41,391 nucleotides of DNA from a virus, in IMG/VR virus record IMGVR_UViG_3300028666_000026, positions 64,001-105,391 of that record; one strand, written 5' to 3'. The stretch's first letter is position 1. The number at the start of each line of letters is the position of its first letter. Shown in pieces: positions 19,877 through 41,391 of the stretch. Below the pieces are notes generated by a model that was given only the letters and a program-made list of their open reading frames with translations, had not been told where the DNA came from and ran no database searches. The position numbers and the translations under genes are program-made.

Positions 19877-19942
19877 GTGAAAATACTGTTGAAGTGTGCG
19901 CTGCTGAGTGTACTCTGCCTTCTCCCTACTACAGTTGTGGCC
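19877..19942 (+). other. Predicted Sec signal peptide (VVA-QT)
   Basis: MKILLK n-region, Leu-rich h-region, AXA cleavage motif. Confidence 0.5.
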
Positions 19943-22900
19943 CAGACTTGGCGTTCATTAGCCACGGCTCGTGGGTTCACAATGGGTTGCGGCGACACGG
20001 ATCCATCCATTTTCAATAGTGATGGCACATTCAACGGTCTGGTTGCGGCTCAGTGTAACAGTATAGAGCCTGGTAATGTCATGAAGCAAAATGCGATGGA
20101 GCCGTCCAATGGTGGCTACGACTTCTCGCAAGCTGATTTGGTAATGAACTATGCGGCGGCCAACTCGCAGTCAGTCACGGCGACCGCTCCAGTTTGGGAT
20201 AATGCTAGTTATGGAGGAGGCACTCCTTCATGGGTTTCTGGCCTGAGTTCTGGCGCGCTGACGACGGCGCTGCAGAATTACGTTAATCAGTTCATGACCC
20301 ACATGCACACCAATTATCCTGGTCGCATGAAACAGATAGCACTTGTAAGCGAGGCCAGCCATCAGTGTCCCAATGGCAGCTATAATCCCGGCTATGGAAC
20401 TGGACCTTACTGCTCTATACTAGGTCCTGATACGTCTTCTGGTTCCTACGCTTCGCATGTATCTGGTTTAACCTACTTCCCTGAATACGTCACTGTGGCT
20501 TACACTCAGGCACGTGCCAGCGATCCCACTGCGCAACTCTGCTACGATGACTGGGGCTGGGAGGGTAGCGGCGCAAGTGGCTATCAGTACTGGCTGGTTG
20601 CGTATCTTAAACATCTGGGACTTGTAGACTGTGTTGGCTTGGAAGGTCAATGGCAGTATAACGCGATTCCCACCAATGTGCCATCAACTGGTTCAATTTC
20701 CTCAACTATCAGTGCGTACCAGGCTCTTGGTGTCACCGTTTACTTCTCACAAGTTCAGTTGGGCATACACACAAATGGCACCAACAATAACGTGCCAAAC
20801 ACTTACACGTCAACAGTGCCTGCCGACCTTACTACGCAAGCTAGTACATACTCTGCACTTCTCGGAGCTTGTCTAGCCAACACGACGGCCTGCAATGCTT
20901 TCTATGTGTGGGGCATATCGGATAAGTGGGCATTCATTGATGCGCCATCACCCTACGGAGTTGGCGCACCGCAGCCGTATGACGCTTCGTACAATCCAAA
21001 AGCGGCGTACACTGCAATCCAGACGGCATTGGCTTCGGGTGGCGGCACTACCTATGCACTCTCGACTGCCACCACAGGAAGCGGAACTGGAACTGTCACA
21101 GGGTGCGCTGGCAACTATGCGGCATCGGTTGCATACTCATGCACAGTGACTCCAACAGGCGGCTCGACTTTATCCAGCGTTACAGGGTGCGGAGGGTCAG
21201 GAACCACCACCTACTCTGGCTCCATGCCGGCTTCGGCCTGCACAGTTACAGCCACTTTCTCTTCTGCCGGCTGTACTGCCAGCAGAACCGCAGCCAGTCT
21301 GAATCCTTCAGACGTGTTGGCCGCGCTGAACGCCGTCAATTGCCCGACGTCCACCGTCAGTCTACCTGCTGGGCATGTGGCTTGGTCCTCTGCCATTGCC
21401 TACACAATGCCGTCAGTGATCACTAGCTTGACATTGCAGGGCGCCACTACGCTGGCCTGCACCGGCACGCCTGCAACATCGGGGTACAGTTGCACTCCTA
21501 CAGACAACACCATCATTGAGGACGCGTACCTCTCCAACACTTCACTCATTACGCTTTACTTGACCAACTCGGCCACTTCTGTCATGCGCATTACAGGCAT
21601 AACAATGCAGGGCGGCAGTGCTGGCGGCAATTCCAAGTATAACGGGTTGATTGATGTGTACAGTGGCTCGCTGCAACTGCGCTACGACCACGATCACTGC
21701 AACATGTCCACGTACTCGCCTACTAGTACGGCGTCTGTATGTCTACGCACATTCGGTCCTGTCACTGGCGTTGCAGACCACAACAAAATTGAGCTGGCTC
21801 CGAACTCTGGCGGATTCCCGACACTGCAGACCTTCTCCTTCGGCTTCTCCATATTTGGCGCATACAACGACTCCATTGGCAACGGCGATGGCACGTTCTC
21901 GCATCCTACGCCTTGGGGCTCACTCACGTCGTTCTATGTGGAGTCCAACGTATTCATAGGCGGATACACAAATGACTGCGGCGGCGCTGGAGCCATGGTC
22001 ATTCGCAATAACAATACACAGGGCAGTTACACGCAGACACACGGCACCAAGTCTGCAGCTGGTCCCGATCGTGGATGCCGCATGTACGAGGCATACCATA
22101 ACTACATCACCGGACCCACATCCGGCATAGGTCCGCTGGATGCTGTGTTCGGCTCGAAGAACGCGACTGCAATGATCTGGGGTAACACGCTGGTGAACGG
22201 CTTCTACCGCTACACCAACTTGTGCACGGATCGTAACTCCTGCGAAACGCCGGAGACTGCGCCACCAAATGGTTGGGGTTACTGCGGCACGGTTCATGGC
22301 GGGTCTGACTCAGCTTGGGACGGCAATAATAATGTCGGCTCTGGTTGGCCCTGCCTGGACGGTATCGGACGCGGTCAGGATACACAGGCTCTCAATGGGC
22401 AGGCGTTCCCAGGTAGACTAAATTCCATCACTGGCACAGTGGCGTGGTCACACCAGTATCTGGAGCCAATGTACTTCTTCATGAACTCGGGTACGCCACA
22501 AGCCGGTGTATTCGCCGAAGTAGGTTCTACCGATACCACAAACAATCGCGACTTCTACGCTGATTGCTCGGCTAGCAATGCTGGCTGCACAGGAGCATTT
22601 ACTGGCGCAGCTGGTACTGGCTACGGTCTGCTAAGCGCACGTCCGTCAACCTGCACAGCAGGTCCTGGCGGCACATATGCTACCAGTCCCACGGGCAGTT
22701 ATGGCGTAGCGTACTTCGCGACTGATGTGAATGGCGGCTTGGGCGGTCTGTATGTTTGCACAGCTACCAACACCTGGTCGTCTACGTACATCTACACGCC
22801 AGCCGCATATCCGCATCCACTCGCAGGCGGCACGCCGCAAGTCAACACGCCCACGGCCACTCCTATTGCGCCATACACTGGCACAGCAACCACTGTTGCG

Positions 22901-24439
22901 CTGGCTGACACCACACCTTCTGCCGCTATATGCTACACAGTAGACGGCTCCACACCCACCGCGCCCACACCGGGCACCTGCTCTGGCGGCACCACGGCGC
23001 TGTACACCACACCAATCAGTGTGTCGTCCACCACCACCATCAACGCTATTGGCACGCTTGCGGCATATCTGAATAGCGCGCAGTTCAGCGGCCTGTACAC
23101 CATTAGTGGCTCGTCTGTCTGCGGTGATCCTACCCAGAATGGTCCCAATTACTCGGGCACTTACAACGTGCCGCCGACAACGTTGCCGCTGGCCGTTGGC
23201 TTTACTTCGCCCACTGCTGGATGCGTCATGCATTACACGGCAACCACGGACGGCTCCACACCAGCTGCACCAACTTGCGGCGATACGACGTATCCTGGCG
23301 GCGGGTTCTCAATTACGTCAGGTGGCACGTATATCTGGCGTACTATCGCCTGCCAAGGCGGATACACCAGCTCAAACATCATAGGCGGCACCTGGACAGT
23401 TTCTGCACCAATACCAGCTTCGTTGACCGTTACAGTGAATGGCACTGGCAGCGGGTCAGTAAGTAGTTGCCCGTTGGGAACCTCAGCACCCACCGTTGGC
23501 TCGTCTGTAACATGCGCAGGCGCGCCTGCTGCCGGGTCCATGGTGACTTCGTCCGGTACTGGTAGTGCTGGCGCTTGCACTGGTGGCGGCTGTACGTTCA
23601 CTTTCAATGTCACTTCGACACTGACATATACATTCATTGCGCAAGCCTCGCCACCACTCATCACGCCGTCCACCGGCACATACACTGGAGTGCAGACTGT
23701 GTCCATGACTGACTCCACACCAGGCGCGGTTATGCGCTACACGCTTGACGGCTCAACACCCACCGCAGGCTCCACTCTGTACAGCGGTTCGTTCTCGGTG
23801 TCGGTCTCTACCACTGTACGCGCCATAGCTATTGCCAGCGGATACACGAACAGCGGCGTGGGGCAGTCTGTCATCACCATCAACTCCACATGCGGCAATC
23901 CAACTCAACTTGGGCCTAACTTTTCGGGTCCGTACAGCTCGCCACCTACCACGCTGCCAATATCTATCGGCTACACTTCGCCGACGGTTGGCTGCAACAT
24001 GTTCATGACGTTGGACAGCAGCACACCCACGTGTCTCAGCACTGCGTATGCTGGGCAGTCAATTTCCGTTACCACTACGATGAAGGTTTTGGCTTGTCAG
24101 GCAGGGTACACTTCGTCTGCTGTGCAAAGCGGAACTTGGTCTATTAACCCACCGGCGGTCACACCATTGTTCTCGCCAGTTACGGGTACGTATTCTGGCG
24201 GCACAAGCGTTAGCATTTCCACCGCAACGTTGGGCTGCAGTGCGTACATTTATTGGGCTACGCACACTCCGCCTACTACTGGTGACAATCATGGCATAAC
24301 CTTCTTCATGACGACTCCGGGCACTTACTATGCCAAGGTTATCAGTTGTCCTGGGTATACCGATTCGTCGGTTGGTTTTGCTACGTACTCTATACCGGGC
24401 GCACCTGCACTACTCATCGCTGTACCAGCAATTGAATGA
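19877..24439 (+). CDS. 1520-aa secreted multi-domain glycanase-like protein: Sec signal peptide, GH10-like (beta/alpha)8 domain, parallel beta-helix-like middle region, about six C-terminal beta-sandwich (CHB_HEX_C/Fn3-like) modules
   Basis: GTG start with GAGGA SD. N-terminus MKILLKCALLSVLCLLPTTVVA-QT. GH10 motifs: NSIEPGNVMKQNAMEPSNGGYDFSQADLVMNYAAAN, LVSEA, AYTQARASDPTAQLCYDDWG, VDCVGLEGQWQ. Repeated TPT...YT(L/V)DGSTPT modules. Confidence 0.6.
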   Translation: MKILLKCALLSVLCLLPTTVVAQTWRSLATARGFTMGCGDTDPSIFNSDGTFNGLVAAQCNSIEPGNVMKQNAMEPSNGGYDFSQADLVMNYAAANSQSVTATAPVWDNASYGGGTPSWVSGLSSGALTTALQNYVNQFMTHMHTNYPGRMKQIALVSEASHQCPNGSYNPGYGTGPYCSILGPDTSSGSYASHVSGLTYFPEYVTVAYTQARASDPTAQLCYDDWGWEGSGASGYQYWLVAYLKHLGLVDCVGLEGQWQYNAIPTNVPSTGSISSTISAYQALGVTVYFSQVQLGIHTNGTNNNVPNTYTSTVPADLTTQASTYSALLGACLANTTACNAFYVWGISDKWAFIDAPSPYGVGAPQPYDASYNPKAAYTAIQTALASGGGTTYALSTATTGSGTGTVTGCAGNYAASVAYSCTVTPTGGSTLSSVTGCGGSGTTTYSGSMPASACTVTATFSSAGCTASRTAASLNPSDVLAALNAVNCPTSTVSLPAGHVAWSSAIAYTMPSVITSLTLQGATTLACTGTPATSGYSCTPTDNTIIEDAYLSNTSLITLYLTNSATSVMRITGITMQGGSAGGNSKYNGLIDVYSGSLQLRYDHDHCNMSTYSPTSTASVCLRTFGPVTGVADHNKIELAPNSGGFPTLQTFSFGFSIFGAYNDSIGNGDGTFSHPTPWGSLTSFYVESNVFIGGYTNDCGGAGAMVIRNNNTQGSYTQTHGTKSAAGPDRGCRMYEAYHNYITGPTSGIGPLDAVFGSKNATAMIWGNTLVNGFYRYTNLCTDRNSCETPETAPPNGWGYCGTVHGGSDSAWDGNNNVGSGWPCLDGIGRGQDTQALNGQAFPGRLNSITGTVAWSHQYLEPMYFFMNSGTPQAGVFAEVGSTDTTNNRDFYADCSASNAGCTGAFTGAAGTGYGLLSARPSTCTAGPGGTYATSPTGSYGVAYFATDVNGGLGGLYVCTATNTWSSTYIYTPAAYPHPLAGGTPQVNTPTATPIAPYTGTATTVALADTTPSAAICYTVDGSTPTAPTPGTCSGGTTALYTTPISVSSTTTINAIGTLAAYLNSAQFSGLYTISGSSVCGDPTQNGPNYSGTYNVPPTTLPLAVGFTSPTAGCVMHYTATTDGSTPAAPTCGDTTYPGGGFSITSGGTYIWRTIACQGGYTSSNIIGGTWTVSAPIPASLTVTVNGTGSGSVSSCPLGTSAPTVGSSVTCAGAPAAGSMVTSSGTGSAGACTGGGCTFTFNVTSTLTYTFIAQASPPLITPSTGTYTGVQTVSMTDSTPGAVMRYTLDGSTPTAGSTLYSGSFSVSVSTTVRAIAIASGYTNSGVGQSVITINSTCGNPTQLGPNFSGPYSSPPTTLPISIGYTSPTVGCNMFMTLDSSTPTCLSTAYAGQSISVTTTMKVLACQAGYTSSAVQSGTWSINPPAVTPLFSPVTGTYSGGTSVSISTATLGCSAYIYWATHTPPTTGDNHGITFFMTTPGTYYAKVISCPGYTDSSVGFATYSIPGAPALLIAVPAIE
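22850..24400 (+). repeat. In-frame tandem array of about six 80-95-aa beta-sandwich modules inside the 1520-aa gene. Two CGxPTQxGPN(Y/F)SG modules alternate with TGTYTG...DGSTPT modules
   Basis: Repeated peptide motifs read directly in the translation. These are protein-coding repeats, not a CRISPR array. Confidence 0.5.
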
Positions 24440-25202: not shown

Positions 25203-26045
25203 ATGCTACCTGTATCACCCGCAGGTCGTCGTTACGGCGTCTACCGTGACAACCCGCTTCACCCGGCACGTACTTTGCTTCGATTGTCCGTGCCGGCTGA
25301 TATACAACTGCCGCCAAAGGCTTCAACTTCGCAGTGGATGGGCCGCATCCGGGACCAGGGCCAGGAAGGCTCCTGTACTGGACAGATGGGTTCTGCGCTG
25401 CGTGACGCTCTGTACCGCAAGTTGTACATTTTTGAAAAAGACAAGAGCGTAGTGCCTTCTGCGCTTTCCGTTTCAGCATCGTTCGTGTACAAGTGCAACT
25501 TGATTGCCGACGGCGATTTGGGCACGGATGCCGGCAGCTCCATACATCAGACATTCATCACTCTCAATCAGAAGGGCGCTTGTCTGGAGGCGCTGGAACC
25601 GTACAGCGACAATGACTATTCTGCGCCACCCAGTGCTGCACAGTACGCAGGTGGTTTGACGTATCGTGGCGGCTCGTATCATTTTCTGCCTGATCTGATC
25701 ACCATGAAGGCGTGCATTGCCAGCGGATATCCGCTAGGCTTTGGCATTTCTGTGTACTCGTCGTTCGAAGACAGCTGGTCAGTTGCTGGCCAGATGCCCA
25801 TGCCAGACGTCAAGACTGAGCAACTGCTGGGCGGTCATGCGCAGCCGGTGTTCGACTATGATGACGACCTGGTATTTGCGGACGGCTACAAGGGCGGGTT
25901 GCTTATTCAGAACTCTTGGGGCACAAACTGGGGCGTATCTGCGCCAGGGCGCACAGACGGAGGCTGCTACTGGATGCCGTATGCCTACGTGGAGGCTGGT
26001 CTGGCCAATGACGCATGGATGATGCATCTTGGCAGGCCGTGGTGA
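25203..26045 (+). CDS. Papain-family (C1A) cysteine peptidase
   Basis: Catalytic triad motifs QGQEGSC (Cys), GGHAQPVFDYDDD (His), NSWGTNWG...GGCYWMPYAYV (Asn). No long propeptide. Confidence 0.7.
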   Translation: MLPVSPAGRRYGVYRDNPLHPARTLLRLSVPADIQLPPKASTSQWMGRIRDQGQEGSCTGQMGSALRDALYRKLYIFEKDKSVVPSALSVSASFVYKCNLIADGDLGTDAGSSIHQTFITLNQKGACLEALEPYSDNDYSAPPSAAQYAGGLTYRGGSYHFLPDLITMKACIASGYPLGFGISVYSSFEDSWSVAGQMPMPDVKTEQLLGGHAQPVFDYDDDLVFADGYKGGLLIQNSWGTNWGVSAPGRTDGGCYWMPYAYVEAGLANDAWMMHLGRPW

Positions 26046-27125: not shown

Positions 27126-27635
27126 ATGGCAGACTTCCAGTCGTGCTTCGCATTTATGATGGCCAACGAGGACAGTGCTAACCTTCACGCACAAGTGTCT
27201 GATGCTTGTCCGCCTGGTGTGGCTGGTCCTTGTTGGGCCATCAGTGGGATTAACAGTGGCGTGTATCCTACGCAGTTCTCTGTGCTGGCTGCCGCGCCGC
27301 AAAGTGCACGTGGGCCGCTGGTAGAAGTCTTCTACAAGACGTACATCTGGGACCGATGGTTTGGTGCGGCCACTTCTACAGATTTGATGATGCGGGTGTT
27401 CGACTGCACAGTGAATCTTGGTGAGCGCAAAGCCGTTCGACTGCTGCAGCAGTCAGTACCAGACAGCTCGCTAGTACCTGACGGTCTTTGGGGTCCGGTA
27501 ACGCTGGCAGCTGTGAATGCAGCTGACCCGGTGGCTACACTGACGGCCTTCAAGGCCGCGCGCCGAGAGCACTACTTACTCAATGATGCCAATAACCCTG
27601 CTCTGTCAGCATTACTGATCAGAGCAGCTAAGTAG
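27126..27635 (+). CDS. Endolysin: GH108-type muramidase N-domain with C-terminal PG_binding_3 domain
   Basis: C-terminal RVFDCTVNLGERKAVRLLQQ...VPDGLWGPVTLAAVNAADPVATLTAFKAARREHY matches the PG_binding_3 pattern, which normally accompanies GH108. Last gene of the late operon. Confidence 0.5.
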   Translation: MADFQSCFAFMMANEDSANLHAQVSDACPPGVAGPCWAISGINSGVYPTQFSVLAAAPQSARGPLVEVFYKTYIWDRWFGAATSTDLMMRVFDCTVNLGERKAVRLLQQSVPDSSLVPDGLWGPVTLAAVNAADPVATLTAFKAARREHYLLNDANNPALSALLIRAAK

Positions 27636-27671
27636 AAGAGCCCACTGCCCAATACGGGCGGTGGGCTCTTC
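27635..27671. terminator. Strong hairpin (perfect 11-bp stem GAAGAGCCCAC/GTGGGCTCTTC, 15-nt loop with inner GCCC/GGGC pairing) between convergent operons; probable bidirectional terminator
   Basis: Seen in sequence directly after the endolysin stop and just downstream of the minus-strand DUF3310 gene. Weak U-tracts on both sides. Confidence 0.5.
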
Positions 27672-27689
27672 GTGCGTTTACGCGCCTTC

Positions 27690-28016
27690 TTAATGCTCGC
27701 GCAGCCGGAGCTTCGCAGGTGGCGGTGGCGGCTCGCGCAGTGCAGGGCCGGGCAACTTCAGCACAGCGTCCAGCTTGTCCAGGAAGCTGCGCGCTTTGGC
27801 CAAGTCCTCCAGGCCATTCTTCTGCAACCACCGAATGACGTAGCGACATATCTGCGCTTCCAGGTATGGCATGCGAGCAAATAAATCCCAGTGTTGAATT
27901 TCTCCGCCGCAGTGCGGGCATTGACCTGCACAGTTGGAGTAGTGTGACCCGCCCACCTGTGCCACCACGGCTGTATTGGCTCCCACTACGCGCACTGATT
28001 TCTTTAAGATGGGCAT
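27690..28016 (-). CDS. DUF3310-like protein (GGSHY motif)
   Basis: GGAGAAG SD. Motifs GGSHY, WDLFA, YVIRWLQKNGLEDLAKARSFL are typical of phage DUF3310 proteins. Confidence 0.5.
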   Translation of the reverse strand: MPILKKSVRVVGANTAVVAQVGGSHYSNCAGQCPHCGGEIQHWDLFARMPYLEAQICRYVIRWLQKNGLEDLAKARSFLDKLDAVLKLPGPALREPPPPPAKLRLREH

Positions 28017-28597
28017 ACAGACTTCTCCATTCTGTTGATTAGTGGTAACAACATGTCGCTGTCAGCGATCATCGCACACTCTCGCATCAAGCGTATGGCT
28101 GCCAATTGTGTGCCCTTGCGCAGCACACAATAGTTGACGCTAAATTGAGGTTGCAAATATTCGCACAAAATACGCAGTATGCGCACGCCGTCTCTGTTGC
28201 CCAACATGGCCTGCCTGGCACAATGTACAGCAGCTGCAATTGTGTCGCTGATAGTCAAAATTTGCCTCTGCGCCTCGAGTAAAGGCGTGTTGCCGAATTG
28301 TAGTTTTTGAAACCTGAATCTTGCTTCGGCTTCGTTCAACTCAGTGAGTAACTCCTTGGACAGTACCTTCTTTACCGGAGCTGGCAAATCGCCGGACCAA
28401 TACTCACCAAGGTCGTGTCGCAGCGCTTCGCGCACGAGGTAGTAGCGCTCGCTTATTGTCAGCTCTTCAGTTTCTGCAAAGTAGTCTGACAACAAAGCCA
28501 CTACCGCGCTGTGGTGTCCGTCTGTTTCATCGCCTATTTGCGGCTCTGTGTGCCAGCGCCGTACGCCTACTGCGCGCATTAAACTATCAACATTCAT
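28004..28597 (-). CDS. HD-domain phosphohydrolase (YfbR-like dNMP/dNTP phosphohydrolase), 197 aa
   Basis: ATG at 28597 overlaps the upstream TGA (ATGA). Motifs RRWHT, DGHHSAV and RHDLGEYWSGD give an H...HD...D metal-binding pattern. Confidence 0.55.
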   Translation of the reverse strand: MNVDSLMRAVGVRRWHTEPQIGDETDGHHSAVVALLSDYFAETEELTISERYYLVREALRHDLGEYWSGDLPAPVKKVLSKELLTELNEAEARFRFQKLQFGNTPLLEAQRQILTISDTIAAAVHCARQAMLGNRDGVRILRILCEYLQPQFSVNYCVLRKGTQLAAIRLMRECAMIADSDMLLPLINRMEKSVCPS

Positions 28598-29655
28598 TTT
28601 GTTCTCCGACTCACCCACTCTTGGCACGCACGCTTCCAGTCCGGCGCATCGATACCGTCCAGACACACGCCCATACTATGCTTGTCTTTCCACTTGCGAT
28701 ATGTCCAGGCAAGAAATACAGGCACCACTACTGCGTGCATAAATGGCGTCTTTAAATCCGGCACGTTCAGCGCTATGGGTTCCTGCGCAGTGGAGCGTAT
28801 CACGGCGCGCGCCCAAGGCATAAATCGGCCCAGGTCAGCGTCGAACCCAGGCTCCAGGGCTGGGCCCAATTCTGGCAATGCACCCAGGGTGTCGCACTCG
28901 TGAATGATTTGGTCTATCTTTTCTGCGCCAAACACACCAGTGTACAAGTGGAAGTTATTGCTGAATTGTCTGTACGTGCCAATAGGCACGCCCACACGCA
29001 TAGCCATGTACTCCTGTAGAAAGCTGAAGTGCACAGCATTGGCACCGTAACAGCCCCATACAATATCATTGCTGCGGTTGCAGACAGTGATGTTGAGCGC
29101 GCCGCCGCGACAATCCACGTAGGCGTGCGTATTGCATGGCACGTCCAGGCCGCCATGTGTGGCCACGTAGAAGTCTGACGCATCCATGTCGCCTACTTTC
29201 GGCAGGACGCTCAGGCCCACTAACTCCGGGTCAGGCACTGCGTTCCACATCGCCAGTACGCAGCGCCGGGAAGCCGGATTCTTCTGCAGCTCCGCCACAA
29301 TGCCTTCCAACTGATCCCACCCAAAGAAACTGCGCCAGCGCCAGCCGTAGGCGCCCCAGCTGGTGATGCCGTCATCGCTGTATTCGCGCATTTGCTTGGC
29401 GAAAAACTCAACAAATTCCACGTCATTGGCACCGCTGAGCATCCACAGCGACTCCATCAGATGGAAGAAAGGGTTGGCATCACGTGTGGGACTGAACAGC
29501 ACGCGGCTGCGTGGGTTGGTGTACTCGGTGCACACAGGACCAGGTGCCACTAGCACTGGGCCGTTGCGACTTTGTTCTTCTACGCCTGCGTGGCGTAGAT
29601 ACTCCAGGCCATATTGCAACGCTTGGTTTACGTCGTCCGTTTGAAAGCTGTACAT
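28594..29655 (-). CDS. Thymidylate synthase-family enzyme (dUMP-binding; candidate dUMP hydroxymethylase or divergent ThyA), 353 aa with ~60-aa C-terminal extension
   Basis: AAGGAGAA SD at ATG 29655. Alignable to E. coli ThyA: ESLWMLSGANDV (ELLWFLQGDTN), YGWRWR, NPASRRCVLAMWN, PCN (PCH catalytic Cys), RSND (RSCD), Asn kept in GANAVHF (PFNIASY), NFHLY (DTHLY). Confidence 0.75.
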   Translation of the reverse strand: MYSFQTDDVNQALQYGLEYLRHAGVEEQSRNGPVLVAPGPVCTEYTNPRSRVLFSPTRDANPFFHLMESLWMLSGANDVEFVEFFAKQMREYSDDGITSWGAYGWRWRSFFGWDQLEGIVAELQKNPASRRCVLAMWNAVPDPELVGLSVLPKVGDMDASDFYVATHGGLDVPCNTHAYVDCRGGALNITVCNRSNDIVWGCYGANAVHFSFLQEYMAMRVGVPIGTYRQFSNNFHLYTGVFGAEKIDQIIHECDTLGALPELGPALEPGFDADLGRFMPWARAVIRSTAQEPIALNVPDLKTPFMHAVVVPVFLAWTYRKWKDKHSMGVCLDGIDAPDWKRACQEWVSRRTK

Positions 29656-29699
29656 CTGTTCTCCTTGCTTACAGGGGTTGAGAGTGCCCACCCTTAATT

Positions 29700-30584
29700 T
29701 TACCGCGCCGCGTAGGGCTCCGCGCTAGGGTTGAAGTTCTGGCGCGGTCTACCTTCTCCACCACGTGTGCGCATGTATTTGTCAAACTCGCACAAGCAAT
29801 TTTGTAGGTTCTGCGCATCCAGACTACGCAATTCCTTGGGCAACTTGGGCAACACGTGACCACGTAGTGCCAACAATGCGCTGTGCCACTCTTGTGGTTG
29901 CCACGGAGCAGTAAGGTCTTGCCCCATGGCGCGGTTAAGTCCACGTTGTGAGCCTGGACCTGGCGCTGCGAACGTTTCCCAATCCACAGCATTGACCAAC
30001 GGCGGCACCCACTTCACGTCTGCCACCACTTGTGCGGCAAGAAAGCTGCCCATGCCGTAGTGAGATTGCAGCCAAGTGTGAAACTCTTGTAGCGTACCTT
30101 TCAGTGGAGTTTGCTTCTTAGCAGCCCACAATGGATTGAGTACGTACTTGGCTAGGTAGTCAGCTTTGGTCTCTCCATCTTTTGCTTCTATGGCGCGAAT
30201 CATGTAGGCCGAAGTCCAGGTCTTTTCACCGCGCCCTTTACGCCTGTTCATTACGCTTGTGAACTTTTTCGGACTCCACTCTACATGTTTGCCGGCAAAT
30301 ACAGCGTTAGGCATCTCATGCAGAGATTCTGGTAAGTTCACCAATCTTGCTACTGTCATGGCAAACCAAACATTTTTGTCGTGTGTGTGCGGCAGCAGCC
30401 ACTCCTTGTGGATCCATTGCGTGACACGGTCGTCCTCACGCCTGACATTGCAGAATCTGTACCGACGCAATATAGGGTCTTTTGTCCACGGCGACGGTTG
30501 ACCAGCGCAGCGCTTGGTGTGAATGCTCCAGCGTTCTGATATGAACGCGACAAATTCCTTCAGCAGTGGAAACTGTGCACTCAC
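29700..30584 (-). CDS. Hypothetical protein in the DNA-modification operon (294 aa); candidate base-modification transferase (aGPT-pyrophosphorylase-like by context only)
   Basis: GTG start with GGAGG SD, GTGA overlap with the GNAT stop. Embedded between the ThyA-like and GNAT genes. No motif I can confidently assign. Confidence 0.3.
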   Translation of the reverse strand: MSAQFPLLKEFVAFISERWSIHTKRCAGQPSPWTKDPILRRYRFCNVRREDDRVTQWIHKEWLLPHTHDKNVWFAMTVARLVNLPESLHEMPNAVFAGKHVEWSPKKFTSVMNRRKGRGEKTWTSAYMIRAIEAKDGETKADYLAKYVLNPLWAAKKQTPLKGTLQEFHTWLQSHYGMGSFLAAQVVADVKWVPPLVNAVDWETFAAPGPGSQRGLNRAMGQDLTAPWQPQEWHSALLALRGHVLPKLPKELRSLDAQNLQNCLCEFDKYMRTRGGEGRPRQNFNPSAEPYAAR

Positions 30585-31060
30585 TTGGCGGCCTCCAACA
30601 TCAATCTCCAGTACGGCACCTTGGCGCTGTTCTGTCCTTCACCCACTACTTTGAAACCCAGCTTTTTGTAGAACCTCAATCCCTGCACATTCTCCTTCTC
30701 AGAGATCAGCTCGAGCAATCCATTTGGCGAAGTTTTCATTGCGTGTTGTAACAATGCACTGCCTATGCCCTTGCGCGGTACAGAAGTGCCCACATAGTAC
30801 ACAGAAGTGTGTGGACGTTCGTAGTAGCGCAAGAATTTGTCGTAGTAAATATCAGGCTTGTGCGGTTTGCGCACGCAGTGATGCACGCATAAGAAGCCAA
30901 CAATCTTGCCCTTCTGTCGCACCACTGAGACCCAACCGCGCGTGTAGTACTCCTCCACGTTGCCCATGCCAACGCCTGAGAACCCCTTGGTGAACTTGCT
31001 CAAGGCTGACAGCTTGAGTATTTCTTTGTGCTCTGACCACTTAGCTTTTTCGATTTTCAT
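30581..31060 (-). CDS. GNAT-family N-acetyltransferase (159 aa)
   Basis: ATGA overlap on both ends. Acetyl-CoA binding motif VGTSVPRKGIGSALLQHAM and motif B RFYKKLGFK. Confidence 0.6.
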   Translation of the reverse strand: MKIEKAKWSEHKEILKLSALSKFTKGFSGVGMGNVEEYYTRGWVSVVRQKGKIVGFLCVHHCVRKPHKPDIYYDKFLRYYERPHTSVYYVGTSVPRKGIGSALLQHAMKTSPNGLLELISEKENVQGLRFYKKLGFKVVGEGQNSAKVPYWRLMLEAAK

Positions 31061-31467
31061 GCTATCAACCAAGGATGTTCTTTGGAGCGTCTGAAGTCCC
31101 ACTTCTTACCGTCGTAGTAGCGCACAAATAAGTATCTGATGCGACCCATTAAGTGCGTATGCTCCAACTCTCTGCCAAATCTTTCCGCGTACCACTTGAA
31201 CATGTGTGGGTATTGTTCGCGAGCGAATAACATAGCAGGCTCGTACACTTCCCTGCCAAATAGTTTTGATCTGGCAGCTAGCAGCTTAGTGTCGCCTTGA
31301 AAGAATTTCATTTTCACATGATCATAAAATTCTTGGAACTCTGGTTTGAACTTATACAGCCAAGGGCCTTTGTTAGTTTGATGACTTGTGCCCTTCTTTC
31401 TACTGTGCATGTGCGTCACGCCAGTGTTGTGCAACACCGTTTGAGGTGCTCCGCCTGCCTTCGTCAT
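31057..31467 (-). CDS. Hypothetical protein (136 aa) in the modification operon
   Basis: ATG at 31467 overlaps the P-loop kinase stop (ATGA), and its own stop overlaps the GNAT start. Confidence 0.4.
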   Translation of the reverse strand: MTKAGGAPQTVLHNTGVTHMHSRKKGTSHQTNKGPWLYKFKPEFQEFYDHVKMKFFQGDTKLLAARSKLFGREVYEPAMLFAREQYPHMFKWYAERFGRELEHTHLMGRIRYLFVRYYDGKKWDFRRSKEHPWLIA

Positions 31468-32027
31468 GCTTTCTCCTTCCCAAGTAGTACCTTCATAAAA
31501 TCCCTCGTAGCCGTCTTGTGTTTCAGCGTCACGCATCGCAAGCCCAGATCTTCTAGCTTTGGCCTGCTTACTTCTACTGCATGATGTTTGACAGCTGTGT
31601 TCTTCGGATCCAGTGGGCGCGTGTCACCCTTGGCAGCGCGGCGCTGGCGAATACGGTATAGGCACACCTCGAGCGGCGTGTCCAGGAAGCACACTACGCA
31701 GCTCTTCTTACGCGCTGCCATGGCGCGGCCTATATTACCTACCGACGAGCTCACCAGCGCGCCCTCGAAGAGCACGTGGCCTCTGATGGCGTATGCTTCG
31801 ACGCGCGGCCAGATCAAGTCGTAGGGCTGTATCGCGTCGCAACCGCCACACTGTGTGGCGTAGGGTCCGACGACGAACAATGGTTTCGACAAGCCAGGTA
31901 TTGTCACCTTGTAGCCTTCTGGACGCTCAGGCCTCGGGCCTATCGGCGCGCTGACATACTTCTTCAAGATATCTTGCACAATGGTGCTCTTGCCAGAGCC
32001 ATGTGTGCCCCTCACATTCAAAATCAT
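31464..32027 (-). CDS. P-loop kinase (187 aa; candidate 5-hydroxymethyl-dU DNA kinase-like)
   Basis: Walker A GTHGSGKST 8 residues from the N-terminus. ATGA overlaps at both ends. Context with ThyA-like, HD and amidotransferase genes. Confidence 0.5.
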   Translation of the reverse strand: MILNVRGTHGSGKSTIVQDILKKYVSAPIGPRPERPEGYKVTIPGLSKPLFVVGPYATQCGGCDAIQPYDLIWPRVEAYAIRGHVLFEGALVSSSVGNIGRAMAARKKSCVVCFLDTPLEVCLYRIRQRRAAKGDTRPLDPKNTAVKHHAVEVSRPKLEDLGLRCVTLKHKTATRDFMKVLLGKEKA

Positions 32028-33886
32028 TTGATCAACCCTCTCTGCACAATAGGCCACAGCCCAATCATGCGCCCGGTATCGCGTAGTACATGTTCCTTAG
32101 ACTTGTCCACCTTCGTACGCGGTGGGGTCGCCAACTCACCCAGATATTCTGGAATGATGTTCTCGTGCCTGAATTGATACAGCACATTCCAATCAATACC
32201 AGACGTGATGGGCGCGTCTCGCATTTGGTTGATCTCGTTGGCCATGCGATCGAGATAGTACGGCAGGTATCTACCCTTAGTGGGCCTGAAGAACCCTTTG
32301 TAGGCGCACAGGCATGACTCCATGAACCAGTGATCCATGCCCAGCTTGGGGTACTCACGTTGGATTTCTGTGAGTAGCTTCTCACCTTCGCCCAGCAGCC
32401 AATCCCATTCTTCCGGCAGCAGCTCCGCTTCCTTAACCTGCTGCACATCAGTGGCGTGCAAGTTCAAGGCGTATGCCAGTCCTGTGCGTGAGCTTTGTGC
32501 TTCACGTAGGAACATAGTGTCAGCCTTGATGGGCATACCCATGCAGCGGTGCAAGGCTTCCGTGTAGATATACGTGGCGTAGCGACCAAAGTGCCAAAGT
32601 GTGCGCAACTTTGCCTCCACCACACGAAAGCGTTCTTCGTCTGTCTTGCCATGCTTGAGCAGCTGCGCGAAAAACTCCTCCTGCGCCGTTGGCGTCTGCC
32701 CGCCCACTGTGTCACGGTAGCTCTCGAACATTTCTACAAAGTGACCCTTCTCATATTTGCGATCAGTGTTGTAGGCTAGCGCACGCCAATTAGCTTTGTG
32801 CCATTTGTCCAGCCGCTTCAGATCGACTTTTTCAAACTCTGGAAATTCCTGCATGACGTAGAACACAGAACCTGGGTGGTAGAACGTGCCATACAAAAAG
32901 CAAGCCCAATACTCCTGAGATTTGGAAAGTTCGTAGCGTCTGAACAAGTAGTTCATCAGTGGGTAGTTGGGATCAATCTCCCAACTGGCAATTGCCGCAA
33001 CGCAATACTGCTTGAAGGACTGGCGCAGGCGTTTGCGATGATCCGCTTGTTTGTACTTTGTCGTGTCCAGCTCTAGCGGAGCTTTGGGCTTCTTGGCTGT
33101 AAGCATCAAGCGGTTCTGGATGCTGGGTCTGGGGAAGCGTACTTCCGAAGGCTGGGCGTACTTCAGCCGGGATAGCTCCTGAGCTCCCGAGGCGGTTAGG
33201 CCGTACTCGGTGTACGGTTCGGCTTCCCACAGCTCCAAACCTCCCGCGAGCGGCTCGCCCAGGCCCTCCAGCGCCCGTAGGACGATGTCTCGAGTAGAGG
33301 CGAAGCCGGTAAGGCTCAGGGCCTTGCTGCGGAACAGCCAGAGGGGCCGGATGTGGTCGCGTATGGCCGTGACCCGGCCTTGGTCGTCGAGGAAGCCACA
33401 GGCGAAGATAGGCGGTTGTACGGTGTATATCCGGTCGAACGCGCTCGAGAGGCTTCCTCGCGCTGCCAATACACGTCGGAGGATCACCTCGGTATCGTTT
33501 GCCGAGGTAGTTTTCACGTCGTAGGCGGCTTCGTACGTCTTCTGGTCTGCCATGGAAACTAGGCCGTTGTGAACCACGGCCAATTTGCTCGTCGCCACGG
33601 GCTGATTGTTTGCGTTGTCCTGCCAGTCACCACTGGTTGAGTACCGGGTGTGGCCTATCGCCTGCATCGGGGTACTGCGCCGCAGTGCATCCCAGGCAGC
33701 GCCGCTGACCAATTCCCAAGCGGGTATCGGTGCTTTAAGTGTGCGTACTTTACCGTTGGCAATCCAAGAAGCGCCGGAAGCGTGCATACCGCGCACTCGG
33801 CTTTCCTCCATCAGCTTGGTAAAGAACTCGAAGGCAACAGGCGCGTGCGCCCGTTTACCTACTACGTATCCAACAATGCCACACAT
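32024..33886 (-). CDS. Fusion protein: N-terminal class-II (Ntn) glutamine amidotransferase domain plus ~400-aa unrecognised C-terminal domain (620 aa)
   Basis: AAGGAGAA SD 4 nt before the ATG. N-terminus M-CGIVGY (Cys nucleophile). GlmS/AsnB-like motifs RYSTSGDWQDNANNQP and VVHNGLV...NDTEVIL. No PP-loop SGGxDS motif in the C-terminal part. Confidence 0.7.
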   Translation of the reverse strand: MCGIVGYVVGKRAHAPVAFEFFTKLMEESRVRGMHASGASWIANGKVRTLKAPIPAWELVSGAAWDALRRSTPMQAIGHTRYSTSGDWQDNANNQPVATSKLAVVHNGLVSMADQKTYEAAYDVKTTSANDTEVILRRVLAARGSLSSAFDRIYTVQPPIFACGFLDDQGRVTAIRDHIRPLWLFRSKALSLTGFASTRDIVLRALEGLGEPLAGGLELWEAEPYTEYGLTASGAQELSRLKYAQPSEVRFPRPSIQNRLMLTAKKPKAPLELDTTKYKQADHRKRLRQSFKQYCVAAIASWEIDPNYPLMNYLFRRYELSKSQEYWACFLYGTFYHPGSVFYVMQEFPEFEKVDLKRLDKWHKANWRALAYNTDRKYEKGHFVEMFESYRDTVGGQTPTAQEEFFAQLLKHGKTDEERFRVVEAKLRTLWHFGRYATYIYTEALHRCMGMPIKADTMFLREAQSSRTGLAYALNLHATDVQQVKEAELLPEEWDWLLGEGEKLLTEIQREYPKLGMDHWFMESCLCAYKGFFRPTKGRYLPYYLDRMANEINQMRDAPITSGIDWNVLYQFRHENIIPEYLGELATPPRTKVDKSKEHVLRDTGRMIGLWPIVQRGLIK

Positions 33887-33964: not shown

Positions 33965-35941
33965 CTAGCTCAACTTGATGTGCGCCGGTGCGTTGCCGTG
34001 CGGCTCGCTGGCCCACTTGATGAAGTACACCGCTTCGTACACGTCGCTCTTCGCCTTCTCCAGTGCCTTCTTGAAAGCGCCCACGGTGTCGGACTTGCGC
34101 AGGATAGCGAAGGAATTGAAAGCCTTGGTGCCTTCGCGGTACGGGTTGCCGTCGGTGCGACCCTCGACTGTTTTCGTAACCAGCTTGATGGTCATTTCGT
34201 CAGCGTAGGTACGGCGGGTGCTTTCGCGTGCGGCCTTCTTGGCCTTGGGTGCCTTCTCGGCTTTGGCAGACTTGGCGGCAGACTTCTTAGCAGGCGGCGC
34301 AAACTTCGGTGTCTTCGTAACGGTTTCGTTTGCCATGGGAATCAGCTCCTTGCAGTGTAGCACTGCGGTTAAGTGCCTTGCGGCAGCTGGCGTTACTGGT
34401 ACAGACGGAACCATTGGATTCAGTAACTGGTTTGCAGCCGCGATCAGGTCAACTTCGCCCGGCACAGGCCGCAGGTTTCTCAGAGTCTTTGTTGGAACAA
34501 CGCCTACAGCAACCCTGACACCATTATTATATACGCAAATTGCGCCCTGTGAGTTTTCACGCTCCAATTGCATCATTACAAGGCCGTTTTTCGGGTCTTG
34601 GAGGAGCCCGATATCGCCCGGTACTAGCTCCACCTCGGCGTCAGGGCGGGGAGCCGCGATAACCTCTGGAGTGACTGCGAGAGCGTATATCTCGCGCTTG
34701 GCAGCATCCTCCTGAGCCTTACGCTCCTTGTTGCTGAGCGGCTTGGCTACGCTCAGGACTTTACCCGGTACGGTGCGATCCAGCTTCGTGGACTGTAAAG
34801 CCTGCTCAAGTAGCTTGCGCTCCGCCCTGGTGTTGGCCGTCTTTATTTTGCGTATAGCTGCGCAGATAGTTTTGCAGCGATCAGCGAATGTCGTCGCGCG
34901 CGCCGCAGCAGACTTGCCTTCCGCACCCACAGCACTGTAGAAAGCCTGTGTCAAATTACCTATTGTGCATTCTTTGGCAAGTACACGATCACGGTTGAAC
35001 AAATTCTTCAGCAGTGCCATGCGCTTGCCGTAGTATTTGTCACCGCGTAGCAGATCCAGATTGTAGTTCTGCAGTGTCAACCCACCCAGCATTTCCACTG
35101 CGCGTACTACGTTAGCTGGCACGCCGTTGACAGCAGGCTTGGTCAGCACAGTCGCACGAGCGGAGGCTATGTCAGCCACTGTCATACCTTCTGTGCCCTC
35201 CAGTGCGAGTTCTGCGGCCTTCGCTGCTCTGGCCAATCTATGGGCCGCTTTATTCAGCGCTGTCTTGGACGTTTGCATGAGCGCGAGCTTGAGGTCTATC
35301 AGCTTGACGCCTGCCAGACGCGCGGCTTCCGGCGGTGGCGCTGGCGTTTCGGCAGGCAGCTTGATGGCCCAGTTTTCTTCAGTACCCGCAACATTGTGTG
35401 AGTACAGCGCGCCGCGTCCGTCCTTGTGTTGGTAGCCGTGCGCGTAGCCGAAGCCGGGTACTTCCTGCGTCATGACAAAGCTGAACTCCGCCTTGCGAAT
35501 GGCCTGTATCATGGGCCGATCTTTGGGTGGCTTGGGTAGCTCGACAACCTTAGCGGACGGCTTCTTCTTGCCAGCCTTCGCTGCGAGCGCGGTCAACTTC
35601 TCCGCAGCAGGCTCTTCCTCAGCAGGCTCTTCGACAATGCTGTGTAGCTCGTGGTTGGCGGGGTTGAAGCATACCGCGCACTTCGTGGACTTGCCGGCGC
35701 TCTTCGCGTAGGCATGCGGTCTGAGCTCTTCGTCGCCGGGCAGGTTTGTGGGTTCTTTGAATACGGCAGTCTTGACGGGCTGCGCTTCTGCTTCCCGCGC
35801 ATAATCCAGGATGGTCTTGATAACGCGCTGCGGCGCTGGCTGCTTTGCCAAAGTCGTTTCTCTGACGACGGCGGTAGCTGCGGTGGCTGCGGTCTTGGCG
35901 GTCTTGCTGCCGGTGGACTTCTTTGCTGTTCCTTGCTTCAT
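33965..35941 (-). CDS. Large Lys/Ala-rich protein (658 aa) with histone-H1-like AKK/AAK repeats at both termini; putative DNA-binding protein
   Basis: AAAGGAGCG SD. N-terminus MKQGTAKKSTGSKTAKTAATAATA. C-terminal AKKSAAKSAKAEKAPKAKKAARE. Central region unassigned. Confidence 0.5.
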   Translation of the reverse strand: MKQGTAKKSTGSKTAKTAATAATAVVRETTLAKQPAPQRVIKTILDYAREAEAQPVKTAVFKEPTNLPGDEELRPHAYAKSAGKSTKCAVCFNPANHELHSIVEEPAEEEPAAEKLTALAAKAGKKKPSAKVVELPKPPKDRPMIQAIRKAEFSFVMTQEVPGFGYAHGYQHKDGRGALYSHNVAGTEENWAIKLPAETPAPPPEAARLAGVKLIDLKLALMQTSKTALNKAAHRLARAAKAAELALEGTEGMTVADIASARATVLTKPAVNGVPANVVRAVEMLGGLTLQNYNLDLLRGDKYYGKRMALLKNLFNRDRVLAKECTIGNLTQAFYSAVGAEGKSAAARATTFADRCKTICAAIRKIKTANTRAERKLLEQALQSTKLDRTVPGKVLSVAKPLSNKERKAQEDAAKREIYALAVTPEVIAAPRPDAEVELVPGDIGLLQDPKNGLVMMQLERENSQGAICVYNNGVRVAVGVVPTKTLRNLRPVPGEVDLIAAANQLLNPMVPSVPVTPAAARHLTAVLHCKELIPMANETVTKTPKFAPPAKKSAAKSAKAEKAPKAKKAARESTRRTYADEMTIKLVTKTVEGRTDGNPYREGTKAFNSFAILRKSDTVGAFKKALEKAKSDVYEAVYFIKWASEPHGNAPAHIKLS

Positions 35942-41329: not shown

Positions 41330-41391
41330 CACACTCTTGACGTCGTCCGTGTAACGCGTGCTGTATGGCTGAGTGCAAAGACTACAGGAAT
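41329..41391 (-). CDS. 3' end of a minus-strand gene running off the window (last 20 codons ...IPVVFALSHTARVTRTTSRV)
   Basis: Open frame from the window edge to a TGA that overlaps the next ATG. Confidence 0.25.
   Translation of the reverse strand: MPVVFALSHTARVTRTTSRV

Follow-up and report, generated by a model that had tools for sequence, protein, structure and literature searches.

We describe a viral gene of the thymidylate synthase (TS) superfamily whose product is very probably a dUMP hydroxymethylase, an enzyme that would convert dUMP and 5,10-methylenetetrahydrofolate (5,10-CH2-THF) to 5-hydroxymethyl-dUMP (5-hmdUMP) and tetrahydrofolate (THF). We put the probability of this reading at about 0.86. 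The gene lies at 28594..29655 on the minus strand of a 41,391-nucleotide stretch of DNA (hereafter, the window), which covers positions 64,001 to 105,391 of the IMG/VR virus record IMGVR_UViG_3300028666_000026, and it encodes a long-form member of the superfamily of 353 aa plus stop (hereafter, the target). The chemistry, and the base finally present in the phage DNA, we infer from homology, motifs, fold, synteny and phylogenetic placement. The ATG at 29655 is the likely start of the gene because a Shine-Dalgarno sequence, AAGGAG, can be read directly 5 nt 5' of it (29661..29666, minus strand); an in-frame GTG at 29691, where the listed open reading frame begins, is less likely. An earlier, sequence-only reading of this DNA had delimited the same gene and had also proposed a dUMP hydroxymethylase, a proposal now backed by the motifs shared with SPO1 gp29, the Asp located three positions ahead of the catalytic Cys, failed TS models and phylogeny. 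A protein identical to the 353-aa target is on record in a 105,390-bp metagenomic contig (ENA ERZ27245386). Open reading frames on the opposite strand over the gene (e.g., 29136..29366, plus) were taken to be spurious, given the strong minus-strand homology and their absence from the contig's called genes.

The target belongs to the TS/pyrimidine hydroxymethylase superfamily, with which its profile matches, fold and catalytic residues all agree. Its match to Pfam PF00303 (Thymidylat_synt) is confined to residues 66-240 and scores 50.1 bits (gathering score, 24.3), and that to PHROG phrog_5131 spans the full length (E 5e-105). A 90%-clustered database contained 6,024 homologues at E <= 1e-5, the best 120 of which share 48-68% identity along the whole protein or the greater part of it, and 1,496 representatives were found at E <= 1e-30 in a 50%-clustered library; their records are mostly labelled 'thymidylate synthase'. 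The closest cultured relatives are YuA/M6-like Pseudomonas siphophages, at approximately 43% identity across residues 1-351, followed by ViI-like phage homologues at approximately 27% and, weaker still, those of SPO1-like phages. At the DNA level, the right half of the window matched nothing among 50,697 phage records. The source phage is uncultured, with relatives at the protein level only.

Among solved structures, MilA was the best relative by sequence (E 7e-18, or 1e-26 with the family profile), ahead of all thymidylate synthases. Structural comparison agreed. The AlphaFold2 (AF2) model of the target, for which the YuA sequence was left out of the input alignment, was predicted with high confidence (pLDDT 93.9, pTM 0.92) and has the TS alpha/beta core fold. 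Foldseek matched it to many TS structures with a probability of 1.0 over approximately 250 core columns (TMq about 0.53), and to MilA over the full length (TMq 0.78 and TMt 0.86 over approximately 355 columns). A fold search of BFVD listed no entry named SPO1 gp29, and other long phage 'TS' proteins matched full length.

Alignments and the AF2 model divide the protein into a TS-like catalytic core (residues 1-243; 28927..29655, minus) and a C-terminal domain. The core motifs E68, Y103, R130/R131, C174, R194-S195-x-D197, N206 and H236-x-Y238 aligned with those of TS, and C174, E68, Y103, R30, R130/R131, R194-S195-x-D197 and H236-x-Y238 are invariant in the target family. N206 (codon 29038-29040) aligns with E. 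coli N177, a position held by Asp in T4 dCMP hydroxymethylase (dCH) and MilA, and the catalytic motif around C174 (codon 29134-29136) is P173-C174-N175, not PCH. Thus, the alignment of all ThyA core motifs, the retention of the uracil-specifying Asn and the replacement of PCH by PCN, all claimed in the sequence-only reading, were borne out. That reading had further taken PCN and a C-terminal extension as signs of a divergent enzyme; both features are real, but they are not peculiar to the target, being normal hallmarks of long-form hydroxymethylases. It was also roughly right about net length in placing approximately 60 aa beyond the ThyA fold, yet the anatomy is different, as residues 244-353 (28597..28926, minus) form a five-helix domain that replaces the TS C-terminus and is equivalent to alpha9-alpha13 of MilA according to the AF2 model and Foldseek. 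The five helices were confidently modelled at residues 244-351. The target is approximately 90 aa longer than E. coli ThyA, and it carries a variable insertion of 25-30 aa at approximately 141-165, where model confidence is low. In MilA, the alpha9-alpha13 domain is remote from the active site and required for solubility (PMC5175136). The long form is also found in SPO1 gp29 (383 aa), YuA gp17 (351 aa) and a ViI-like homologue (346 aa).

Judged by curated models, motifs, phylogeny and fold, the target is not a canonical TS. All six NCBIfam TS equivalog models that matched it scored far below their cut-offs (best, 61.4 vs 174.55); with TIGR03284, the target reached 29 vs a cut-off of 108.35. 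E. coli ThyA passed (579 vs 405), whereas SPO1 gp29, YuA gp17 and T4 gp42, like the target, failed the TS equivalogs. TS enzymes are marked by PCH and IWDEW and end in a C-terminal tail. The target reads PCN and has no such tail, the helical domain standing in its place, and the positions of Trp80 and Trp83 are occupied by M89 and Y92. L. casei Trp82 mutants (E. coli Trp80), studied by Kealey et al. in 1995, reportedly leak 5-hydroxymethyl-dUMP. The [YF]SDDG motif, which the target family shares with SPO1 gp29, falls in the region of TS Trp83. In TS, the C-terminal tail seals the active site for methylation, and Trp83, backed by Leu143, governs solvent access (PMC6400193).

Phylogenetic placement pointed the same way. 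In a neighbour-joining tree (263 columns, 300 bootstraps), which is distance-based and includes few reference sequences, the hydroxymethylases were separated with 100% bootstrap from five TS enzymes, namely that of E. coli and four of phage origin. The sequence-only reading had suggested asking whether the protein falls inside canonical phage ThyA, and this split places it outside both canonical and phage ThyA. The long-form clade, comprising the target family, YuA, SPO1 gp29, the ViI-like protein and MilA, received 98% bootstrap, and the target family grouped with YuA at 100%. A grouping of dCH with MilA was not recovered in the tree. We therefore regard it as extremely unlikely that the target is a divergent but genuine TS supplying dTMP for phage replication, even though the PF00303 threshold is passed, every residue needed to bind dUMP and to carry out covalent catalysis is there, including the uracil-specifying Asn, and most homologue records carry the TS label. 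In addition to the failed equivalogs and the tree, this alternative is opposed by the loss of the C-terminal tail and of Trp80/Trp83, by Asn in place of His147, by Asp instead of the TS Leu three residues before the catalytic Cys (Cys-3), and by an operon shared with a DNA kinase homologue and an amino acid:DNA transferase, which need 5-hydroxymethyluracil (hmU or 5-hmU) rather than T.

With regard to the substrate, the residue after the catalytic Cys (Cys+1) and the N177 equivalent together formed a code in our alignment. The combination H/N was found in the five TS enzymes, N/N in SPO1 gp29, YuA gp17, the ViI-like homologue and the target, and T/D in T4 gp42, a Bacteroides phage protein annotated as dCH, and MilA. 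SPO1 gp29 is a biochemically characterised dUMP hydroxymethylase, according to the mention of Wilhelm & Ruger 1992 in PMC5175136. The comparison with SPO1-type hydroxymethylases and TS enzymes suggested earlier thus showed the target to share PCN and Asn with SPO1 gp29, and not PCH with TS. Of the homologues that could be parsed, 111 of 112 close and 77 of 80 more diverse sequences combine PCN with Asn, and Asn occupies the specificity position in 111 of 112 and 80 of 80, respectively. Because it occurs in SPO1 gp29 and nearly all homologues, PCN is the normal mark of dUMP hydroxymethylases and not an anomaly. In one 52% identical homologue (P0088), Asp replaces Asn at the base-specificity position (RSEDAIWGCFGSDVV) while PCN is kept, and this protein may represent a switch to a cytosine substrate inside the clade.

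That homologue is among the few points in favour of a dCMP (or CMP) hydroxymethylase, which would produce 5-hydroxymethylcytosine nucleotides as T4 gp42 or MilA does; others are that MilA is the best solved-structure match in both sequence and fold, and that some close relatives adjoin TAGT glycosyltransferases, a family first linked to TET/5hmC systems. We consider such an activity very unlikely for the target, which has Asn206 and Asn175 in place of the Asp and Thr of T4 gp42, the Bacteroides phage enzyme and MilA, and which groups with YuA at 100% in a tree without a dCH and MilA group. Furthermore, R130 and S195 of the target occupy the positions of MilA K133 and A176, the residues that set the ribose preference of MilA (PMC5175136); R130/S195 are of the deoxyribose type and thus indicate a deoxyribonucleotide substrate. 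The neighbouring 5-hmdU DNA kinase and amino acid:DNA transferase genes, described below, belong to families that work on 5-hydroxymethyldeoxyuridine (5-hmdU) (PMC8989533).

A further line of evidence for the dUMP hydroxymethylase came from the position Cys-3. In the ternary complex of T4 dCH, the Asp at this position (Leu in TS) activates water and contacts Ser94, two residues before the catalytic Tyr (Tyr-2), and it was proposed as a hydroxymethylase signature (PMC6400193). The target has D171 here, and Asp is likewise present in SPO1 gp29, YuA gp17, the ViI-like protein and MilA. Among 107 parsed close homologues, 39 combine Gly at Tyr-2 with Asp at Cys-3, as the target does, and 67 combine Asp at Tyr-2 with Ala or Cys at Cys-3, with no sequence having Asp at both; the lone outlier (P0087) is a parsing slip and actually has Asp at Cys-3. 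That an Asp is always found, at one or the other of two contacting positions, speaks for a conserved catalytic need that is absent from TS. On these alignments, the alternation between Cys-3 and Tyr-2 extends the published hydroxymethylase signature, and we found no description of such either/or placement in the literature searched.

The mechanism we propose is modelled on the TS, T4 dCH and MilA paradigm. The Arg set R30, R130'/R131' and R194, with S195, H236 and Y238, would bind dUMP, and N206 would read the face of the uracil. The Cys174 thiolate would then attack C6, after which the methylene of 5,10-CH2-THF would move to C5, with E68 and Y103 serving as acid/base, and an exocyclic methylene intermediate would arise as THF departs. 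With the TS tail and the Trp80/Trp83 pair missing and Asp171 present, water, not hydride, would add to this intermediate, giving 5-hmdUMP and THF.

Several points weigh against this assignment. The sole directly characterised reference, SPO1 gp29, is only approximately 28% identical to the target, and a narrower clade of the target family with SPO1 gp29 received bootstrap values of only 54-72%. The literature searched contained no isolated-enzyme assay of any member of the YuA/M6-like clade. Moreover, the Cys-3 Asp signature stems from a dCMP hydroxymethylase, and its use for dUMP enzymes is an extrapolation. The AF2 model is one of the protein without ligands. Finally, our inspection covered approximately 51 kb of the 105-kb contig, so that a second TS or a ThyX could be encoded elsewhere.

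The genomic context is informative about the use of the product. From 33886 down to 27690, the window carries a run of minus-strand genes, all on one strand and with ends that overlap or nearly abut. The first encodes a 620-aa fusion (32024..33886, minus) of a class II (N-terminal nucleophile, Ntn) glutamine amidotransferase (GATase; PF13522, 38.8 bits) with an amino acid:DNA transferase (ADDT or AADT, aGPT-Pplase2; PF18724, 76.6 bits vs a cut-off of 26.2), and its N-terminus reads MCGIVG. It is followed by a 187-aa P-loop kinase (31464..32027, minus), a homologue of the 5-hmdU DNA kinase (5-HMUDK) that matches YuA gp13 over the full length (BLASTP, E 1e-13) and PF18748 at 25.5 bits, slightly under the cut-off of 27. 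Next in the cassette are a called gene for a 136-aa protein of unassigned function (31057..31467, minus), for which Pfam and PHROG searches gave no match, and a GNAT acetyltransferase of 159 aa (30581..31060, minus; PF13508, PF00583 and PF13673). A standalone HMUDK_hel protein of 294 aa (29700..30584, minus; PF18723, 152.7 bits; 33% identity to YuA gp14, E 6e-50) directly precedes the target. HMUDK_hel is the domain formerly called aGPT-Pplase clade 1.

Downstream, the TGA of the target and the ATG of the next gene form an ATGA overlap (28594..28597, minus), typical of translationally coupled genes. This next gene encodes a YfbR-like HD phosphohydrolase of 197 aa (28004..28597, minus; PF12917, 39.5 bits vs 25.9), a candidate dTMP- or dTTP-depleting enzyme, in agreement with the adjoining HD phosphohydrolase recognised in the sequence-only reading. 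It is homologous to YuA gp18 (E 1e-9), with which it has the motif HD.GE.W.GD.PAP.K in common, and its weak PDB matches to YfbR, OxsA and DatZ do not fix a substrate. The last gene of the block encodes a small DUF3310-like protein of 108 aa (27690..28016, minus; Pfam DUF3310, E 0.0018, under the cut-off), which also matched phrog_236 'nucleotide kinase' (E 2.8e-8). T7 gp1.7 carries DUF3310 at its C-terminus, and the 108-aa protein is without the N-terminal two-thirds of gp1.7; as BLASTP gave only E 0.1 over 32 residues, we do not claim that it is a gp1.7-type nucleotide kinase phosphorylating 5-hmdUMP.

5-HMUDK is known to co-associate with dUMP hydroxymethyltransferase (PMC5889632, PMC8989533), and in many metagenomic clusters, modification genes are located near a dUMP hydroxymethylase (PMC8989533). 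By its predicted gene functions, the architecture of the window is that reported for thymidine-hypermodifying phages. By analogy with M6/YuA, ViI and PaMx11, the phage most likely hypermodifies hmU after replication, rather than stopping at hmU like SPO1. The HD hydrolase, together with a DCD-family and a NUDIX protein, may bias the nucleotide pool against dTTP and towards dUMP, a role we infer by analogy with the dTMPase and dTTPase enzymes that hmU phages carry and with the dTTPase/dUTPase of phage SH-Ab 15599 (PMC8989533, PMC13458397). The phage family-A DNA polymerase would then put 5-hmdU into DNA. After replication, the 5-HMUDK homologue would phosphorylate 5-hmdU in the DNA, the GATase-AADT fusion would swap the phosphate for a nitrogen nucleophile, and GNAT may then acetylate the product. 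The genes for the family-A polymerase, the DCD-family protein (dCTP deaminase/dUTPase fold) and the NUDIX hydrolase were seen on the same contig past window position 41391 (L017 1853-4922), approximately 13-16 kb upstream of the target and approximately 8-10 kb upstream of the modification cassette, and they are likely parts of nucleotide-pool rewiring.

The sequence-only reading had likened the phage to hmU phages. Its 5-hmdUMP synthesis is supported, but the picture is probably incomplete, as the 5-HMUDK homologue, AADT and GNAT upstream of the target were missed. The scenario it implied, in which 5-hmdUMP is made and the DNA ends as SPO1-type hmU-DNA while the kinase, AADT and GNAT are inactive or act elsewhere, is in our view unlikely. 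In its favour, the kinase falls slightly under its Pfam cut-off (25.5 vs 27); on the other hand, the kinase is a full-length homologue of the YuA 5-HMUDK, the ADDT domain is far over its threshold, and the genes follow one another closely on one strand, stop codons overlapping with start codons. The GATase catalytic motifs of the fusion, which is kept in approximately 60 clusters, also look intact. Compared with the GlmS and PurF motifs, the Met-Cys start, GHTRYSTSG, VVHNG and NDTEV all seem to be in place.

Further modification of hmU thus remains our preferred reading, and the fusion bears on which base is formed. A search of PDB sequences with the fusion gave no match at E <= 0.01, and the literature searched assigned it no chemistry; GATases are merely listed there as co-occurring (PMC8989533, PMC13229309). 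On the basis of domain content, we tentatively suggest that a conventional hydroxymethylase could feed an uncharacterised branch of the pathway. Ammonia released from glutamine by the fused Ntn-glutaminase might serve as the nucleophile onto phosphorylated 5-hmdU, giving 5-aminomethyl-dU in one step, and GNAT might acetylate this to 5-acetylaminomethyl-dU. Such acetylation would lead to the PaMx11-type base by a shorter route, without the glycine and flavin-lyase steps of PaMx11.

To place the locus in a wider context, we compared it with six metagenomic relatives, five sampled through their TS homologues (51-74% identical to the target by alignment) and one contig sampled through its GATase-ADDT fusion. 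The block of HMUDK_hel, TS homologue, YfbR-like HD protein and small gene is kept in all six, and YuA has the same order. HMUDK_hel lies upstream of the TS homologue, adjoining it or one to two genes apart, in six of six relatives and in YuA; the HD gene is directly downstream in every sampled relative; and the small downstream gene is DUF3310-like in four of the six. The association with enzymes that use 5-hmdU is shown by the window, the five TS-homologue relatives and the fusion-derived contig alike.

Upstream of this block the cassettes are exchanged. In P0002 and P0037, the cassette consists of a TAGT glycosyltransferase and an NTP-transferase, in P0098 of TAGT alone, in P0011 of ADDT, a pyridoxal phosphate (PLP) enzyme and a DNA methylase, and in P0075 of ADDT, PLP and a 485-aa protein, with a dCMP deaminase downstream. 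The AADT cassette is replaced by the TAGT glycosyltransferase in the closest relatives (L008 6743-9155, L010 4720-7128 and the P0098 contig), and two of these three also have a sugar nucleotidyltransferase. Their gene content suggests glycosylated 5-hmU (base-J-like) DNA in uncultured phages. The same three relatives have no recognisable P-loop kinase and still keep the standalone HMUDK_hel beside the TS homologue, and the role of HMUDK_hel may be independent of the kinase. In vitro, the kinase/AADT reaction did not require M6 gp55 (PMC8989533), a possible counterpart of HMUDK_hel.

The GATase-ADDT fusion has approximately 60 full-length homologue clusters, all metagenomic and with unnamed or generic source labels only. 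In P0299, it occurs with the complete core and without GNAT; in P0323, it stands beside a Tet_JBP dioxygenase, and no TS homologue was found within 8 kb. Thymine dioxygenases are an alternative route to 5-hmU in DNA (PMC8989533, PMC13229309). The occurrence of a TS homologue and a thymine dioxygenase as alternative partners of one downstream enzyme is therefore good indirect evidence for a 5-hmU product.

Some other features of the window were recorded. Directly upstream of the modification cassette, 33965..35941 (minus) encodes a 658-aa protein with no Pfam or NCBIfam match, and relatives keep a gene in this place (519-678 aa). In the structural module, 19877..24439 (plus) encodes a 1,520-aa protein, probably involved in the tail or host recognition, with Glyco_hydro_10, CHB_HEX_C_1 and Fn3_assoc matches; its counterpart in a relative has 1,943 aa and many such repeats. 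The gene at 25203..26045 (plus), located between that of the large putative tail protein and a PG_binding_3-containing gene (27126..27635), encodes a 280-aa protein with a weak Peptidase_C1 (papain-family cysteine protease) match barely over the Pfam cut-off. Rfam and tRNA scans of the window returned no RNA genes. Counts of promoter and terminator patterns around the operon were at chance level, and we claim no transcription unit boundaries. At 27640-27685, in the gap where the minus-strand modification operon and the plus-strand lysis/structural genes converge, both strands show terminator-like hairpins, which are only suggestive given these chance-level counts.

There are precedents for the enzyme class, for its motifs and long form, and for its linkage to genes of the 5-HMUDK and AADT types. 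The hydroxymethylase would not surprise a specialist, such an association of dUMP hydroxymethylase with 5-HMUDK and AADT having been reported by Lee et al. (2018, 2021); the sole unexplored element is the adjoining uncharacterised amidotransferase-AADT fusion, which offers a concrete target for enzyme discovery. The analysis re-labels a gene called "thymidylate synthase" in databases as the entry enzyme of a DNA-hypermodification pathway, and it provides sequence rules for sorting the classes of the superfamily, namely the Cys+1/N177-equivalent code (H/N, N/N, T/D) and the Asp at Cys-3 or Tyr-2. It also presents the locus as a fixed "5-hmU supply" core beside exchangeable tailoring cassettes. 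Phages of this kind are resistant to many restriction enzymes, and probably to certain other nucleases as well, a property that bears on phage therapy and on the sequencing and cloning of phage DNA.

Among known systems, Pseudomonas phage YuA (Mesyanzhinovviridae) is the closest. Its gp17, an accepted dUMP hydroxymethylase, is 43-46% identical to the target over the full length, including the C-terminal domain, and has the same PCN, Asn and Asp at Cys-3. The YuA gene order corresponds to that of the window, running from AADT through tailoring genes, 5-HMUDK and HMUDK_hel to the TS homologue and the HD protein, although in YuA the TS homologue is separated from HMUDK_hel by Nmad5 (gp15) and a small gp16. 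The tailoring genes differ, with separate AADT, PLP and radical-SAM proteins in YuA and the GATase-AADT fusion and GNAT in the window. In M6 DNA, 5-NedU derives from 5-hmdU (PMC5889632, PMC8989533). SPO1 gp29 resembles the target in its long form, PCN, Asn at N177, Asp at Cys-3, [YF]SDDG and lack of the TS tail; however, hmU stays in SPO1 DNA, and neither a 5-HMUDK nor an AADT is encoded nearby.

MilA, the CMP 5-hydroxymethylase of Streptomyces rimofaciens (PDB 5b6d, 5jnh), shares the full-length fold including the five-helix domain, but its base-specificity residue is Asp, its Cys is followed by Thr and its ribose-type pair is K133/A176, as opposed to N206, N175 and R130/S195 in the target, and it serves antibiotic biosynthesis, not a phage. 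T4 gp42 is of the same chemistry class as the target; both have an Asp at Cys-3, and both have lost the TS tail (PMC6400193). It differs in being 246 aa long with no helical domain, in using Asp179 for cytosine, in having Thr after the Cys and in retaining the Trp80 equivalent that the target lacks, and the two are approximately 18% identical. The ThyA enzymes of E. coli and of phages My1, Bc431v3, Mudcat and YOG (19-22% identity) share the core fold and the residues of covalent catalysis, whereas their PCH, IWDEW and C-terminal tail that seals the folate site have no equivalent in the target.

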